From positions 2,848,001-2,912,000 of the forward strand of contig OZ252149.1 in NCBI GenBank assembly GCA_965248755.1: a stretch of DNA of 64,000 nucleotides, read 5' to 3'. Made by a program: the position numbers and the translations under genes. This DNA is from Candidatus Latescibacterota bacterium. GTDB taxonomy: Bacteria > Latescibacterota > CBDEFO01. The notes beneath the pieces were generated by a model. It ran no database searches. It saw nothing but the letters and a program-made list of their open reading frames with translations, and was not told where the DNA came from. Below, piece after piece: positions 18,490-58,479 of the stretch (its first letter is position 1; each line of letters starts with the position of its first letter).

Positions 18490-18889
18490 GCTATCACGTG
18501 AGATGAAGGTGAGAATTGTGTTTTAGGATAGGGTCTTTCGGATAATCACTTAAAGTTTGCCGAGCAGCTTGGGGAAGATCTCTTAACAATACCACGCGTT
18601 TTCTATACAAACGGTACAGAGAATCGCTGTAGATACCGTAAAGGACGGTAGAGCACATACCGACCTGTATGGTTGACACCAAATTAAGAGTTAAGGTGGT
18701 CTTTGGAGTCGGCTATATAAAGACGCTGCTGGCAGCGCTGTCCTCCTGATTCAACGTATTGTTCCATTCTCAAGCGGGTCAAAATTTTTGTTGACTTTGA
18801 AGGGAAGCGTTATTAAGTTTTACATTAAAGTTGCTTATGGTTTTCTATACACAGAACAGCTTAAGTAATAGAAAGAGGTAATTTAGCAT

Positions 18890-18966
18890 GGCGAACGTAG
18901 CTCAAAGGATAGAGTGCCTGACTGTGGCTCAGGATGTTGCGGGTTCGAGTCCCGTCGTTCGCCCCA
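18890..18966 (+). tRNA. tRNA-His (GUG) with encoded G-1 and CCA
   Basis: GCGAACG/CGTTCGC acceptor with G-1:C73, anticodon arm CCTGA-CTGTGGC-TCAGG, T-loop TTCGAGT. Confidence 0.95.
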
Positions 18967-18981
18967 TATATATCTTAGTGA

Positions 18982-19170
18982 CAGGCTCTTTTGGCGTCTG
19001 CGAGATACAGGTGTGGTTTGTCCCTGGTGAATTTGACTGTGCCCACATTCGTCGTACTTTCTGCCGTCACCATTCCTGAATTGAAGGCGGGTCGGCAGTT
19101 CATACAGGGCTAACGGCAAGATACCGAAAGTGACTACCGCCTCGCAAATTTCAAAAGGGCTTCTTTTTTA
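18982..19170 (+). ncRNA. Candidate rod-like structured RNA or leader between tRNA-His and hisS
   Basis: Nested complementary blocks AGGCTCTTTTG/CAAAAGGGCTT, GCGAG/CTCGC, CCCTG/CAGGG, GTGAATT/AGTTCAT; T-tract at 3' end. Confidence 0.4.
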
Positions 19171-19218
19171 TCTGTGCAGGATTCTATTATCATTAGTTAC
19201 GCTACAAGGAGCGTGGAA

Positions 19219-20733
19219 ATGCCTTCGTTCAGAAGACCAAGGGGTACTGAAGACTTTCTCCCAGATGAGATGATCATAAGAAGTTACGTCGAGGGTATTA
19301 TGAGGGAGACGTTTGAATCTTACGGTTTTCAGCAGGTGCAAACGCCTATCTTTGAGGAATTTGCGTTGCTTGCAGCGCGTTCAGGCGAGGAGATTCGGGA
19401 AGGTATGTTCACCTTCGTAAGCGACGACACTGAATATGCCCTGCGACCAGAACTAACGGCGCCTGTATGCCGCCTTGTGGCTACGGGAGAGTTAGAGCCT
19501 TTCCCAAGACCGTATAAGGTCTACTGTATCGGACAATGTTTCAGATACGAGCGGCCGCAGGCGGGACGATACAGGGAGTTCAGGCATGCCAGTTTGGAGC
19601 TTATAGGATCCTCATCACCGATGGCAGACGCCGAGGTGATCAGCGTCGCTTCCAGTATACTTGACAAGTTGGGAATTTCCGACTACACCTTGAAAGTCGG
19701 CAACATCGGCATCTTTCGTTATGTTCTGGCGAGCAAGGGTTTCGACTATAACTTCCAAAGTAAGATTATAAGTGATATAGATAATGTCATCAGCCTGCGA
19801 GAAAAATGCGAAACTATTAGAGGGCGATCCAACTTTGAACGCGATGACATCGAATACGTCAAAGGAAAAATCAGAGACCTTTACACCTTTCAGGATGAGG
19901 TGGACTACGAGGGAGAACATGAGATCGTACCTCAGCGGGTCCTCGATGAGGCTTCTATAAGAAGATGGCTTGATGAGCTTCCACTCGTCGCTGAGGACAC
20001 ATACCGTAGCATCTGGGTAAAAAAGGACGTTATAGGTGAAGAGCTGGCAGATCTCTTAATCAATATATCGAAAGTCAGAGGAAGCAAAGATGAAACCCTC
20101 CAAGCTGCAAAAGACCTCATCTGGAATACAGATGCAAAGGGTGCTTTCAAAGAGCTTCAGGAGGTGCTCAACTGGCTGGAACACTATGGAGTGAGTAATT
20201 ACCAGGTGGTCCTGGGAGTAGCACGCGGCCTGGACTACTATACGGGAACTGTATTTGAGATTGATTGCCCGTTGCTCGGCGCTCAAAAGCAGATATGTGG
20301 TGGGGGGAGATACGACAAACTGGTAAGCGAATTTGGGGGGCCGGAGATACAGGCGACAGGATTTGCTTTCGGCTTCGACAGAGTCACAGAGGCGTTTAAA
20401 AAGAGTGACGGGATCGTCCCCCCCCCAAAGGTCCATATCTTTGTCGCTGCTGTTTCAGAAGATATGAAGGCAAAGGCGGTCGAAATAGCAGGTATGTTAA
20501 GAGGTCGCGGTAAGAGGGTGGAAGTCGATATGCTGAAACGGGGCCTGCAGGACCAACTCGGTTATGCCTCCGGCATAAACTGCGATTATGCTGTGATCGT
20601 GGGTCCGGACGAGCTTGAGAAGGAGTCCGTGATTCTAAGAAATATGAGGACTCGAGAGCAAGAATTAGTTGCTATCTGTTCGCTTGCCGATTCGGTAAAC
20701 CAGTCCCCGATTGAATCTATCGGGGGTAGCTGA
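19219..20733 (+). CDS. hisS: Histidyl-tRNA synthetase (archaeal-like, enlarged insertion domain); may also serve a HisZ role
   Basis: PRGTEDF, LRPELTAP, FRYERPQAGRYREF, RGLDYYTG, GGGRYD, C-terminal anticodon-binding domain; AAGGAG SD before ATG 19219. Confidence 0.85.
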   Translation: MPSFRRPRGTEDFLPDEMIIRSYVEGIMRETFESYGFQQVQTPIFEEFALLAARSGEEIREGMFTFVSDDTEYALRPELTAPVCRLVATGELEPFPRPYKVYCIGQCFRYERPQAGRYREFRHASLELIGSSSPMADAEVISVASSILDKLGISDYTLKVGNIGIFRYVLASKGFDYNFQSKIISDIDNVISLREKCETIRGRSNFERDDIEYVKGKIRDLYTFQDEVDYEGEHEIVPQRVLDEASIRRWLDELPLVAEDTYRSIWVKKDVIGEELADLLINISKVRGSKDETLQAAKDLIWNTDAKGAFKELQEVLNWLEHYGVSNYQVVLGVARGLDYYTGTVFEIDCPLLGAQKQICGGGRYDKLVSEFGGPEIQATGFAFGFDRVTEAFKKSDGIVPPPKVHIFVAAVSEDMKAKAVEIAGMLRGRGKRVEVDMLKRGLQDQLGYASGINCDYAVIVGPDELEKESVILRNMRTREQELVAICSLADSVNQSPIESIGGS

Positions 20734-20735
20734 CC

Positions 20736-22046
20736 ATGGAGGAAAAGCCATTAATCAACCTTGTCTTCGCCGGCCATCTGGATGGCGGAAAATCGACTCT
20801 GGTCGGGAGAATGCTCTACGAACTCGGTCGCTTACCAGAGCAGACGATCTCCAGGTTAAGAAGACACGCTAAGGCGGCTGGAAAAGAGACATTTTTCTAC
20901 GCCTTCAACTCAGACCGAAGTCTCGAGGAACGTGAAAGAGGCATAAGCATAGAAGCACACTTTGATGACTTTGAGACGGAGCAGAGAAGGTTCAATATCA
21001 TCGACGCTCCCGGGCACCAAGACTTTGTAAAGAATATGATCATGGGGGCGGCAAAGGCAGATGTCGGGGTCTTGGTACTGGATGCTCAAGAGACCTCTCA
21101 AGAAGAGCTACAGCCTCAGACGAGGGAGCATCTTATTCTGCTCCACTCCCTCGGAGTCGAAAAGCTTATTGTAGTCGCTAATAAAATGGATCTGGTGGAC
21201 TACTCCAGGGAGATCTATGAATCCTTAAAGATCAAAATAGAAGATTTTCTCAAGCAAGTCCTGTGTAAGTTCCAGGATGAGGTTGTATATGTTCCTGCCT
21301 CAGCATACTGTGGAGAAAACGTCATTGAATCATCCGATAGGTTGCTGTGGTATTCTGGCCCTACGTTTCTGGAGGCTCTGGAAGGCATAGAACAGCCTCA
21401 CAGACTTGTGGATGCGCCTCTTCGAATGCCGATTGTCAGGACGTTCAACGTCCAGTTTGGCGCTACGGCCACCGGAAAGATAGAGACGGGAAGAGTTCGA
21501 CCGGGTGATACGGTCGTAATCGTTCCGTATCCTGGAATAGGTTCTATAACGGGACGTGTCAGTTCGATAAAATGTAAGGATGAAGATAAAAAGGAGGCAA
21601 CTGCCGGAGATGATGTCGGTCTCCTCTTGGAACAGTTAGAGCAGGGGTTCGTAATACGGAAGATTAAAAAGGGATTTATGCTTGCCGGCCCTGAGCATCC
21701 TCCGGTCGAGGCAGAAAGGTTCAAGGCCCGGATTGTAGTGTTAGACCATCCGTCCGAAATCAGAGCTGGTTATACGCCGTACCTGCATTGCCATCAAGCG
21801 TCCCTCCCATGCCGAATTACAGAAATTGAAGATGTACGGGACTCAAAGAGTAACGAGCCAAAAGAGTCGAATAGTGGAAGTCTTGTAAATGGCGATACGG
21901 CAACAGTGTGGATCGAACCTCAAAAGCCTCTCGTAATAGAAAAGGCACAGGATTTTCCTCGGTTAGGGAGATTTGCATTACGAGACGGAAGAACTATAGG
22001 AAGCGGCACGTGCCTAGAGATTGTCCCAAAAGAAAATAGACAGTAG
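20736..22046 (+). CDS. EF-1alpha-like translational GTPase
   Basis: GHLDGGKST, ERERGISI, DAPGH, NKMD; EF-1alpha-type insert after G1; IVVLDHP...GYTP and LGRFALRD in domain III. Confidence 0.85.
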   Translation: MEEKPLINLVFAGHLDGGKSTLVGRMLYELGRLPEQTISRLRRHAKAAGKETFFYAFNSDRSLEERERGISIEAHFDDFETEQRRFNIIDAPGHQDFVKNMIMGAAKADVGVLVLDAQETSQEELQPQTREHLILLHSLGVEKLIVVANKMDLVDYSREIYESLKIKIEDFLKQVLCKFQDEVVYVPASAYCGENVIESSDRLLWYSGPTFLEALEGIEQPHRLVDAPLRMPIVRTFNVQFGATATGKIETGRVRPGDTVVIVPYPGIGSITGRVSSIKCKDEDKKEATAGDDVGLLLEQLEQGFVIRKIKKGFMLAGPEHPPVEAERFKARIVVLDHPSEIRAGYTPYLHCHQASLPCRITEIEDVRDSKSNEPKESNSGSLVNGDTATVWIEPQKPLVIEKAQDFPRLGRFALRDGRTIGSGTCLEIVPKENRQ

Positions 22047-22165
22047 AGAGGGGCACATGCACCCATTACCCATCTCAAGAGGTCGGTGGAACAGACATTC
22101 TTTTCTGTTCTTTAGAAGTAGACAGTAAGTTAGGCGGTGTTCCTACCTGCTACGTAAACTAAACA

Positions 22166-22924
22166 ATGGATACCAAGAAATCTACAAAGAAGCTGAAGAT
22201 AGCCCTTCCCAAGGGAACCCTGCAATCAGATACGTTAGCTCTGTTTACGAAGGCGGGCTACACGATAGGAGGCTACAACACAGAGAACCGGAACTACAGG
22301 CCCACGATCCACGACCAAGAGATAGAACTCAAGGTCTTGCGACCGCAGGAGATCCCACTTTTTGTATCCGATACGGCATATGATTTGGGTATTGCCGGCA
22401 TAGACTGGGTGCTGGAAAACGGCATTCAGCAGCGCGATCAGACCCAACAGATAGAGGAGATTCTGGATCTGGAATATGGGCCGGTGCAATTGGTGCTTGC
22501 TGTGCCTGAGGATTGGTCGGATGTGGATTCGTTCGGGGACCTTATGGAATTTCACTGGGGAAACGTAAGGATCGCCACAGAGTATCTCAATCTGGCCTCG
22601 AAATATGTCCTTGAACGCACCGATTCAGAGCCCAGCATCAGATCGCCCTGGAGCCAGAGGTATCGTCAGCATACGTCGAGGGTGGAGCTTCTGCACTCGT
22701 TTGGAGCAAGTGAAGGTAAGCCTCCGGAAGATAGCGAGGCTATAATAGATATTGCAAGTCCAAAGGCGACAACAATAAAGGAAAATGGGTTGAAGATAGT
22801 AGATGTCATATTAACATCTACGGCTCGACTTTTGGCTTCATCCAAAGCCCTTGCTGATCCTTGGAAAGCTGTGAAGATAAACGAAGTCAAAGAGAAGCTG
22901 GCAAAAGCCATCTCGTCCGATTGA
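22166..22924 (+). CDS. hisG: ATP phosphoribosyltransferase-like protein, lacking the C-terminal regulatory domain
   Basis: IALPKG, LRPQEIP, DLGIAGIDW, LDLEYG, RIATEY, SFGASEGKPP, STARL. Confidence 0.8.
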   Translation: MDTKKSTKKLKIALPKGTLQSDTLALFTKAGYTIGGYNTENRNYRPTIHDQEIELKVLRPQEIPLFVSDTAYDLGIAGIDWVLENGIQQRDQTQQIEEILDLEYGPVQLVLAVPEDWSDVDSFGDLMEFHWGNVRIATEYLNLASKYVLERTDSEPSIRSPWSQRYRQHTSRVELLHSFGASEGKPPEDSEAIIDIASPKATTIKENGLKIVDVILTSTARLLASSKALADPWKAVKINEVKEKLAKAISSD

Positions 22925-23136
22925 TCCGAAGGAGAATTCCGCTTCGAGATTGCTTCGTCAGACAGGAATGTCTGACCCACCTTTTTATATATGTTGGTAG
23001 GACAGACATTTTTGTCTGTCCTGAAGGCCTGGGCAAGCAACGTCATTGCGACCCCCGATTTAATCGGGGGCAGCGAAGCAATCTCAAAGATTGTCCATCC
23101 CCAGGTTTGATTGCTCTGCTTACGAGAGTGAACCTA

Positions 23137-24407
23137 TGCAAGTCTATAGATTAAATGACCTGTCCGAAGCCCAAAGGGATAAAATACTCAAAAGGTCAGA
23201 AGCCGAGTTTGAGAACCTCATTCCCTACGTGCAAGAGATTATGGATGACGTCAGACAAAATGGAGATGAGGCTCTCTTGAGGCTGACCGAACTACATGAC
23301 CGCGTAAGAATATCGGACATTGCCGTCGCGGATGAAGAGTTCGACAGAGCCTACGAGGAAGTGGGGGATCCTGGAGTCTCTGCCCTTAAACACGCGATGC
23401 GAAATCTGGAGGTCTTCCACAGGACCCAACTCGTCGAAGAGGAGATAGTTCAGGTGGACGAAGGCATCCGAATCGGTCGCCTTAATCGACCCGTTGAGAA
23501 AGTCGGCATCTATATTATCAGCGGTTACACCTCCGAGGTGCTGATGAACGGGGTGCCCTCTGGGATTGCGGGCTGTAAAGAGCGTGTCATCTGCACTCCC
23601 CCGCAAGAGGGTGGAAGCGTCCCCGCATCGATTTTAGTTGCGGCGGATCTTGTCGGCGTACGGAGGATATTTAAGGTAGGAGGTGCGCAGGCAATTGCAG
23701 CCATGACCTACGGTACGGAGACGATTCCAAAGGTTTACAAGATCTTTGGAGCGGGGAATAACTACGTGACAGTGGCTAAGATGCTGGCCTTTGGCCACGT
23801 GAACATAGATCTTCCAGCCGGCCCAAGCGAGATTTTCATCATCGCCGACGAGAGCGCCGATGCAAGATTTGTCGCCGCCGATCTGATCTCTCAGGCGGAA
23901 CACCCAAACTCAGCGTGTATACTTATCACAACATCTCAAGCTTTAGCTGCTGACGTCAAAAGGCAAATTGATCAGCAACTTGCCCTCCTCCCCACAAAGG
24001 AGTGTGTGCAGGGAGCAATCGAAAAGAACGGCGCGATCGTAATTGCGGACGATCTTGCCGAGTCCATAGACTTTGCCAACGCATATGCGCCCGAACATCT
24101 GGAGATTATGACCACAGACGATCAGGCGATCCTCGAAAAGATCACGAACGTCGGCTCCGTATTTCTGGGTCCGTACTCGACGGTACCGGCGGGGGATTAT
24201 GCCTCAGGCAGCAATCACGTGCTGCCCACAGGTGGTTTTGCAAAGATGTTCTCCTCTCTTTCGGTTGACTCGTTTATCCGTAAGGTGGAGGTGCAACAAT
24301 TAAGCAAAGAAGGGCTTTCTTCAATCCGAAAAGCTGTGGGATATTTGGCTGATGTTGAGGGATTTGCCGCCCACAAAAGGGCAGTGGAAATCCGTCTTGA
24401 GAATTGA
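23137..24407 (+). CDS. hisD: Histidinol dehydrogenase
   Basis: GGAQAIAAM, DLPAGPSE, SQAEH, APEHLEI, GDYASGSNHVLPT. Confidence 0.92.
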
Positions 24408-58381: not shown

Positions 58382-58479
58382 GGGAATGGATGAGTCACTG
58401 GTGGGCTTCGCGGACTTCAAATCCGTTGCGGCGTACTAACACTGCGCTGGGTGGGTTCGATTCCCACACATTCCCGCCA
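58382..58479 (+). tRNA. selC: tRNA-Sec (UCA)
   Basis: GGGAATG/CATTCCC acceptor with GCCA end, anticodon loop CTTCAAA, long variable arm, GTGGG-TTCGATT-CCCAC T arm; 98 nt. Confidence 0.92.

Follow-up and report, generated by a model that had tools for sequence, protein, structure and literature searches.

The window, that is, the whole 64,000-nucleotide stretch of DNA analysed, carries a histidine unit on its forward strand in the order tRNA-His, candidate His leader, hisS, a gene for an EF1A-like GTPase, hisG and hisD. The tRNA-His(GUG) gene (18890..18966, + strand, as are the other features of the unit) has an encoded G-1 and C73 and is the sole tRNA-His among the 48 tRNA genes that ARAGORN finds in the genome; its product is an ordinary 7/5 cloverleaf with no visible anti-determinant. 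The candidate leader ORF (19011..19079) has 22 codons, a GTG start and three His codons, two of them adjacent near the end. Alternative hairpins overlap it and no convincing terminator stem was found after it; the fold of the whole leader is no better than that of shuffled sequences (z -0.67), and a promoter/terminator scan stays at chance level. Upstream of hisS, an Rfam search found tRNAs only and no T-box.

hisS (19219..20733) encodes a long HisRS of archaeal type (504 residues) whose best solved match is the Thermoplasma enzyme (1WU7), which it exceeds by ~70 residues through a helical insertion (residues ~177-269, modelled confidently as long helices at 177-201, 208-227 and 244-269). The protein matches the HisRS profile TIGR00442 (368 > 287), has the PF03129 anticodon-binding domain, keeps the RPExT, RGLD(F/Y)YTG and GGGRYD motifs and stays low on the HisZ profile TIGR00443 (241 < 272). 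Its gene is the only PF13393 gene of the genome, which has no second HisRS. It has at least 119 relatives at 44-66% identity, and 103/119 of this clade have F for the first Y of RGLDYY. The host enzyme also has private Q123H and G125S changes at columns that are invariant in 119/119 relatives, on the motif-2 strand by the His-binding glutamate.

The HisG (22166..22924) is of the short form (252 residues, no HisG_C match at E up to 1) and is the only one in the genome. It forms a related short-form group with the HisGs of two other such cassettes (L117 9138-9917; L095 8407-9150), with an insertion (EPS/T-I-x-SP/TPW) and FGAxExKPPED in common. hisD (histidinol dehydrogenase, 23091..24407) is separated from hisG by a palindromic, REP-like intergenic repeat (22946-23030) with 35 BLAST matches in the genome. 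In this genome (98% complete, in a single contig) the unit holds the only tRNA-His, HisRS and HisG found; hisA/F, hisB and hisI are located elsewhere. The GC3 of the unit (0.49-0.56) lies within the genome range (median 0.56), and there is therefore no compositional sign of recent transfer. The host has one EF-Tu, SelB, tRNA-Sec and tmRNA, all away from the unit (a tRNA-Sec(UCA) gene lies in the window at 58382-58479, ~36 kb from the cassette).

The GTPase gene (20736..22046) starts 2 nt past the hisS stop and encodes 436 residues. The closest match of the protein is archaeal EF1A (43% identity with the Aeropyrum factor, E 3e-106). The protein matches the Pfam domains GTP_EFTU, D2 and D3 and has the EF-Tu/EF1A fold in its AF2 model (pLDDT 91.6, pTM 0.90; TM 0.89 to aEF1A 3vmf). 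All five G motifs are present (G1 GHLDGGKS, G2 RGISI, G3 DAPGH with its catalytic histidine, G4 NKMD, G5 SA), the P-loop pattern being intact despite the change of His17 to Gly. That the G motifs are largely intact, as the original prediction had it, is borne out for this protein and for most of its family (G3 His in 21/21 and G4 K/D in 22/22 dereplicated members). G2, which in its RGISI form presumably resembles that of RF3, varies between S and T (RGIS in 16, RGIT in 39, a gap in 2; n=57). The protein nevertheless falls below every curated cut-off for aEF1A (TIGR00483, 418 < 540; PRK12317, 450 < 502), CysN (TIGR02034, 233 < 336; PRK05124, 219 < 590), EF-Tu and SelB. No CysN-level match was found in the host genome, and neither cysD nor cysC lies near the gene, the neighbours being hisS, hisG and hisD. 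The letters of the pocket considered below are not an assembly error, because the sister genome (G001) is identical at these residues and one contig of run X2 (which may be the source sample) spans 18717-22975 with 0 differences. One RNA run (0.07 word share) gives short contigs, at 95-99%, over parts of the GTPase gene and the hisS junction; these may originate from DNA and so are no evidence of expression.

The GTPase family and its amino-acid pocket

A protein search retrieves ~50 relatives at 46-59% identity, which rank above canonical aEF1A and come from Theionarchaea, Chloroflexota and sources labelled 'bacterium'; a second search added three more distant members and metagenome loci two. 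A FastTree tree of 82 rows places the 29 rows of the family on one side of a branch (SH 93), joined with three divergent proteins (SH 98), apart from the main aEF1A group (support 92), from CysN and from eRF3/HBS1, the deep fork being weak (49). On these sequences the window protein would belong to a separate aEF1A-derived GTPase clade of ~56 members, a real and conserved EF1A subfamily that is apparently undescribed and is linked to the charging of tRNA-His. The subfamily table of Atkinson 2015, in the available portion of that paper (PMC4342817), has no such group, though its sequence lists might file members under aEF1A, and the literature searched, which left out most subscription journals, yielded no description of an EF1A paralogue linked to HisRS. 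The P-loop is damaged in some members (L091, P0127, P0057, P0048). A sister clade (P0126, P0129, P0147; SH 100) has R where EF-Tu has D217, together with motifs of the SIE(E/T)WN type and, in switch I, FWEPI; P0126 is without the G3 histidine.

Pocket residues were compared between 56 family sequences and 68 canonical aEF1A sequences; EF-Tu numbers are those of E. coli, reached through the EF-Tu of the host (offset 2 after domain I). The three stretches quoted in the original prediction, a domain II strand that reads LRMPIVRTFNVQFGATATGKIETG from 21420 onward, SSIKCKD and GDDVG, are all present in the 436-residue ORF, and align with PVQNVY, SIEMH and GDNIG of solved aEF1A. The strand LRMPIVRTF (21420..21446) has Val234 at the place of EF-Tu E216 (Leu in 50/56 of the family) and Arg235 (21438-21440) at that of D217 (Arg in 56/56). 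GDDVG (21606..21620) puts Asp293 (21612-21614) where EF-Tu has N274 and SelB has Arg (Asp in 53/56). Phe76 (20961..20963) stands at EF-Tu H67 (F/Y in 53/54) and may be compared with the aromatic lid of SelB (PMC3037878). EF-Tu T229 has become Ala (A246, 47/56), and F219 is retained (F in 54/56). H67, E216, D217, F219, T229 and N274 are the positions that were randomised to make EF-Sep, according to the accessible text of PMC6386890, and five of these six are rewritten in the family, as F/Y76, L234, R235, A246 and D293 (for the roles of pocket residues, see the relevant parts of PMC4499158).

Around the pocket, SIEMHH has been exchanged for SIEWQH (E 52/56, W 51/56, Q 51/56, H 53/56), of which SSIKCKD (21561..21581) is a version private to this genus, and HxHTA in domain III for HxHQA (HCHQA, 21786..21800; Q354 in 56/56 of the family vs T in 67/68 aEF1A). 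A new Arg308, invariant in 56/56, precedes IKKG (GFVIRKIKKG, 21645..21674), just ahead of K312, which we take to sit at the position of the EF-Tu arginine for the 5' phosphate. The pocket of canonical aEF1A (Q/E-D, SIEMHH, GDN) is absent, being replaced by V-R, SIKCKD and GDD in the window and L-R, SIEWQH and GxD in the family. That such changes are due to chance is argued against by the near uniformity of canonical aEF1A at the matching columns (Q63/E5, D58, E63, M67, H68, N68; n=68). Dereplication at 70% leaves 22 members, with R235, R308 and Q354 in 22/22 and D293 in 19/22.

The substitutions are accordingly a conserved set across orthologues and not random decay, which was the check that the original prediction proposed. 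Its description of acidic residues becoming R/K and of N becoming D stands family-wide for the change of D217 to R and for N to D; the change of E to K is confined to the genus. It passed over a private H17G in G1 (His in 48/52 of the family) as well as the histidine context. The putative contacts with the tRNA backbone are retained. K99, N100, E279, K312, R416 and D417 correspond, on our assumption, to the EF-Tu residues that touch A76, the 5' phosphate and the T stem; the mean top-residue share at K99/N100, E279, K312 and R416/D417 is 0.89 in the 22 dereplicated members vs 0.62 overall. The alignment shows, then, a presumptive amino-acid pocket that has been rewritten as a conserved set while the backbone contacts stay.

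Comparison with SelB defines the chemistry of this pocket further. SelB has an aromatic lid together with D, R/H and R (in the available sections of PMC4605307 and PMC3037878), its basic residue in E. coli being Arg181 (PMC4605307). R235 matches that residue, as does an R in the SelB of the host itself. The family has the lid and the first Arg of SelB, but Leu in place of its Asp and Asp in place of its second Arg, a 2/4 match (aromatic/D/R(H)/R vs F/V(L)/R/D). The net charge is +1 for SelB (D/R/R), -2 for EF-Tu (E/D/N) and 0 for the family (L/R/D). By homology to EF-Tu, R235, D293, F76 and R308 should lie close to one another, and such a net-neutral pocket would suit imidazole, or another group able to act as hydrogen-bond donor and acceptor alike, better than an anion.

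Linkage to HisRS and distribution

A DNA pattern made from the elongation factor motifs only matches 25 metagenome loci. Family members are encoded in 11 of these; the other 14/25 have none and were dropped. The long HisRS lies upstream in 8/8 of the metagenome loci that have upstream DNA, directly or with hisG between (L095), six of the eight being Theionarchaea-like near kin, and hisS is likewise upstream in the host, its sister genome and G944, a genome of another bacterial phylum. tRNA-His heads the unit in four lineages (host and sister, L091, L095 and G944) and a short hisG lies within it in three (host, G944, L095). No hisG is found near the pair in the Theionarchaea-like loci or in L091, where tRNA-His, hisS and a factor gene with a damaged P-loop are followed by an aromatic amino-acid lyase of the histidine ammonia-lyase family.

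The G944 unit, which holds the sole PF13393 and HisG matches of its genome, runs from promoter-like boxes through a 26-codon leader and a strong terminator hairpin (-18.4 kcal/mol) to tRNA-His, hisS, hisG and the GTPase gene. Its upstream region (L117 7183-7405) has TTGACA-17-TATACT boxes, His-His and a third His in the leader, and the intrinsic terminator ahead of tRNA-His; this leader is likely to be a His attenuator, with a tRNA gene also under its control. The Theionarchaea-like loci lack a tRNA gene and share a conserved 10-codon leader with one His codon (M-P/L-R-R-D-x-L/F-H-R/K-x-stop; three distinct versions seen), which has a GGTGA ribosome site, an archaeal promoter 5' of it and a start that pairs with a downstream CTGGG(C) arm before hisS (L083 9530-9700, L087 7028-7200, L097 6580-6760 and L088 3413-3527, all on the - strand; L086 2950-3125, +). 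It looks like an archaeal histidine-sensing leader peptide. A protein without Pfam match is encoded downstream of the factor gene in L093 (3284-4231, +) and L095 (6009-7037, -; 27% identity, E 3e-21) and is possibly a further cassette member in one sub-lineage.

As a proxy for linkage, an exactly equal longest-contig size with a long-HisRS cluster is found for 23/51 family clusters vs 0/68 canonical aEF1A clusters. Distances between the GTPases and between their HisRSs correlate with r = 0.96 (27 pairs; 0/2000 permutations), or 0.91 over 17 pairs with ten near kin removed; 22/27 pairs are joined by longest-contig size alone and the correlation is partly shared descent, so that what it shows is joint inheritance, not physical binding. 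Fusions of HisRS or HisG with the factor were not found among 15 longer matches (a weak test), the top match of that search (P0414; 842 residues on one 3-kb contig) being canonical aEF1A with a C-terminal Ser/Thr kinase, perhaps a read-through or assembly artefact.

In the phylum of the host the long HisRS occurs in 2/168 genomes and the GTPase in 2/61 relatives, and four relatives that were checked carry an ordinary HisRS. This rarity, with the ordinary HisRS of the relatives, makes it most likely, as we infer from the sequences, that the unit arrived by transfer and replaced the native hisS. The phylum of G170 gave 1/301, a true match that is G944 (1/81 among the relatives of G944). The phyla of G168 (0/401 genomes) and G169 (0/61) gave no match, nor did viral contigs, or plasmids with HisRS as query, and a genome-contig search returned 80 loci that are all canonical aEF1A or CysN-like by identity (28-44%), with no family member recognised. 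Since only some candidates per genome were scored in the large searches, the negatives mean not found in the genomes searched. Other matches were set aside: the one in the phylum and class around G172/G859 (1/301, 1/201) is an ordinary HisRS that carries a repeat insertion and has no family factor by it, and that in the phylum of G171 (1/391) is canonical aEF1A beside aEF2. L118 (G1285:C276), an archaeal aEF2-aEF1A fragment in a bacterial genome bin, is probably contamination.

Candidate functions

An elongation factor with a rebuilt pocket, beside the sole tRNA-His and the sole HisRS of its genome, suggests a carrier reserved for a single ordinary amino acid. The reading that we favour, at a probability of about one half, is that the GTPase descends from archaeal EF1A and serves as a GTP-dependent carrier selective for His-tRNA(His), and that it works with its HisRS and has been inherited and transferred with it, usually along with tRNA-His. 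In its GTP state the factor would take His-tRNA(His) from the partner synthetase; the Arg/Asp pair beneath the aromatic lid would clamp the imidazole and the alpha-amine, and R308 would perhaps read the phosphate end of the extra G-1. Product release would be speeded and the ester shielded, and the tRNA would then be delivered to the ribosome or handed to EF-Tu. There is precedent in the archaeal EF-1alpha:LeuRS complex, which raises kcat ~8-fold (in the available part of PMC2094089).

Delivery to the ribosome in a bacterium is the weaker half of this proposal, and even granting a carrier we would put it at somewhat under even odds. It is weakened by the domain II loop 238-245, which is no better conserved than average in the family (0.59 vs a protein mean of 0.62; in aEF1A, 0.75 vs 0.69). 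With an ordinary tRNA-His cloverleaf and with EF-Tu present, which should bind the tRNA-His of the host, there is also no evident need for a special carrier. Against the carrier reading stand the damaged P-loops of some members and, in the window copy, the loss of E279, W280, Q281, H282 and H17. A bolder version, in which a portable histidine module (tRNA-His, long HisRS, His-specific EF1A paralogue and His-codon leader) has moved between archaea and several bacterial phyla, displacing host hisS and tRNA-His, and in which bacterial ribosomes receive His-tRNA at CAU/CAC from an archaeal-type factor and not from EF-Tu alone, would have to be called doubtful. If true, one of the 20 standard amino acids would have an elongation factor of its own.

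The competing explanation that survives best, unlikely as we judge it, removes the GTPase from the ribosome and makes it a regulatory subunit in the manner of CysN, bound to a long HisRS that would also act as the HisZ of the short HisG; through GTP hydrolysis, or by sensing charged His-tRNA, the GTPase would tune charging and the first step of histidine synthesis. The short form of HisG normally depends on the HisRS paralogue HisZ (so far as the accessible text of PMC10795190 goes), and no separate HisZ was found in the host, sister and G944 genomes, each of which has a single short HisG and this HisRS as its sole PF13393 gene. The presence of hisG inside three of the units, the His-codon leaders, which would place the unit under histidine control, and the CysN precedent of an aEF1A that moved into bacteria and became an enzyme subunit (PMC4342817) speak for this explanation. 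It sits poorly with the Theionarchaea-like loci and L091, in which the pair has no hisG beside it, with the retained tRNA-backbone contacts and, weakly, with the lack of fusions already referred to. The unit also suggests a way in which a short HisG could function where HisZ is missing from the genome.

The state of the copy in this genus raises another issue. H17G and SIKCKD are private to the host genus, being shared with the sister genome, and the window copy deviates at 10 of 135 conserved columns. Its E to K change may weaken tRNA binding, and the copy may be a drifted member that binds tRNA more weakly than is the norm in the family. Carried further, the argument would make it a passenger: the family is a real His-linked factor, and this copy, under relaxed selection, is retained because the essential HisRS and tRNA-His come from the unit. 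The pN/pS against the sister genome is 0.27 for the GTPase (10 nonsynonymous, 11 synonymous) and 0.16-0.20 for hisS, hisG and hisD, and the partner HisRS has its own private changes. We consider this rather improbable: both genomes keep an uninterrupted, full-length frame, pN/pS is well under 1 and its difference from the neighbours is not significant because the counts are tiny, 12/56 members deviate more and 2 equally, and R235, D293, R308 and Q354 are retained.

It is distinctly improbable that the pocket holds no aminoacyl end at all and binds a protein instead, as eRF3/HBS1 bind eRF1/pelota. EF1 paralogues have often switched to tRNA mimics (PMC4342817, in the part available), the long helices of the HisRS insertion provide a candidate ligand, and pairing of R235 with D293 could close the pocket; yet the family conserves the A76 glutamate as well as the acceptor- and T-stem contacts, and tRNA-His moves together with the unit. 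Least probable by our estimate is the SelB-like selection of a modified or anionic aminoacyl-tRNA (phosphorylated or altered histidine, for example, or a mischarged tRNA-His) that the original prediction had offered: despite the SelB-type R235, the occurrence of H67Y and D217R in the Sec-adapted EF-R1 (PMC6386890, as available) and the Phe of the HisRS clade, an Arg+Asp pocket that is net neutral and not cationic as in SelB makes an anionic cargo unlikely, the E to K change is private, no modifying enzyme recurs by the HisRS-GTPase pair, and the linked HisRS and ordinary-looking tRNA-His, sole in the genome, must supply ordinary histidine.

Comparison with known systems

To our knowledge, all standard aminoacyl-tRNAs are assigned to EF-Tu/EF1A, and no specialist but SelB is established. 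That general-carrier rule would be tested directly by a conserved paralogue that is linked to a single standard synthetase and the cognate tRNA. The bacterial case adds a unit from which the sole tRNA-His and HisRS of the genome come, a leader resembling a His attenuator in a second bacterial phylum, short HisG without HisZ, and an SIKCKD that belongs to the genus and not to the family. Since the pocket is a natural rewrite of the positions that engineers randomise for genetic code expansion, it may also help in incorporating histidine analogues.

With aEF1A itself (TIGR00483, PRK12317; PDB 3VMF, 3WXM, 4CXG) the family shares the three-domain fold, G1-G5 and the tRNA-backbone contacts; it differs in forming a separate clade, in a pocket changed from QD/N to LR/D, in occurring in bacteria and in its tie to hisS and tRNA-His. 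SelB, aSelB and eEFSec likewise have a rewritten EF1-family pocket with an aromatic lid at 67 and Arg at 217 and coexist with EF-Tu. In contrast to SelB, the window protein ends after domain III (436 residues) without a C-terminal winged-helix SECIS-binding extension, has Asp and not Arg at 274 and is linked to a standard tRNA-His(GUG) and to sense codons, the SelB and tRNA-Sec of the host lying elsewhere in the genome.

A further parallel is aSelBL (Atkinson 2011; PMC3037878, as far as available), also an orphan EF1-family paralogue proposed for one standard amino acid, patchily spread and with some damaged G domains; it is, however, derived from aSelB, keeps the Sec-type D/H/R pocket and has lost the G3 His, which the aEF1A-derived family of the window retains. 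CysN, the GTPase subunit of ATP sulfurylase, is an aEF1A that moved into bacteria and became fixed in an operon with an adenylating enzyme. The available part of PMC4342817 gives it as the sole clear case of horizontal transfer founding a new trGTPase subfamily, and the present family would be a second aEF1A-derived group in bacteria; it forms a separate branch, scores under the CysN cut-offs and has HisRS as its partner in place of a cysD neighbour. The archaeal EF-1alpha:LeuRS complex (PMC2094089, in part) also couples an elongation factor to a synthetase, but it uses the general EF-1alpha and no dedicated paralogue.
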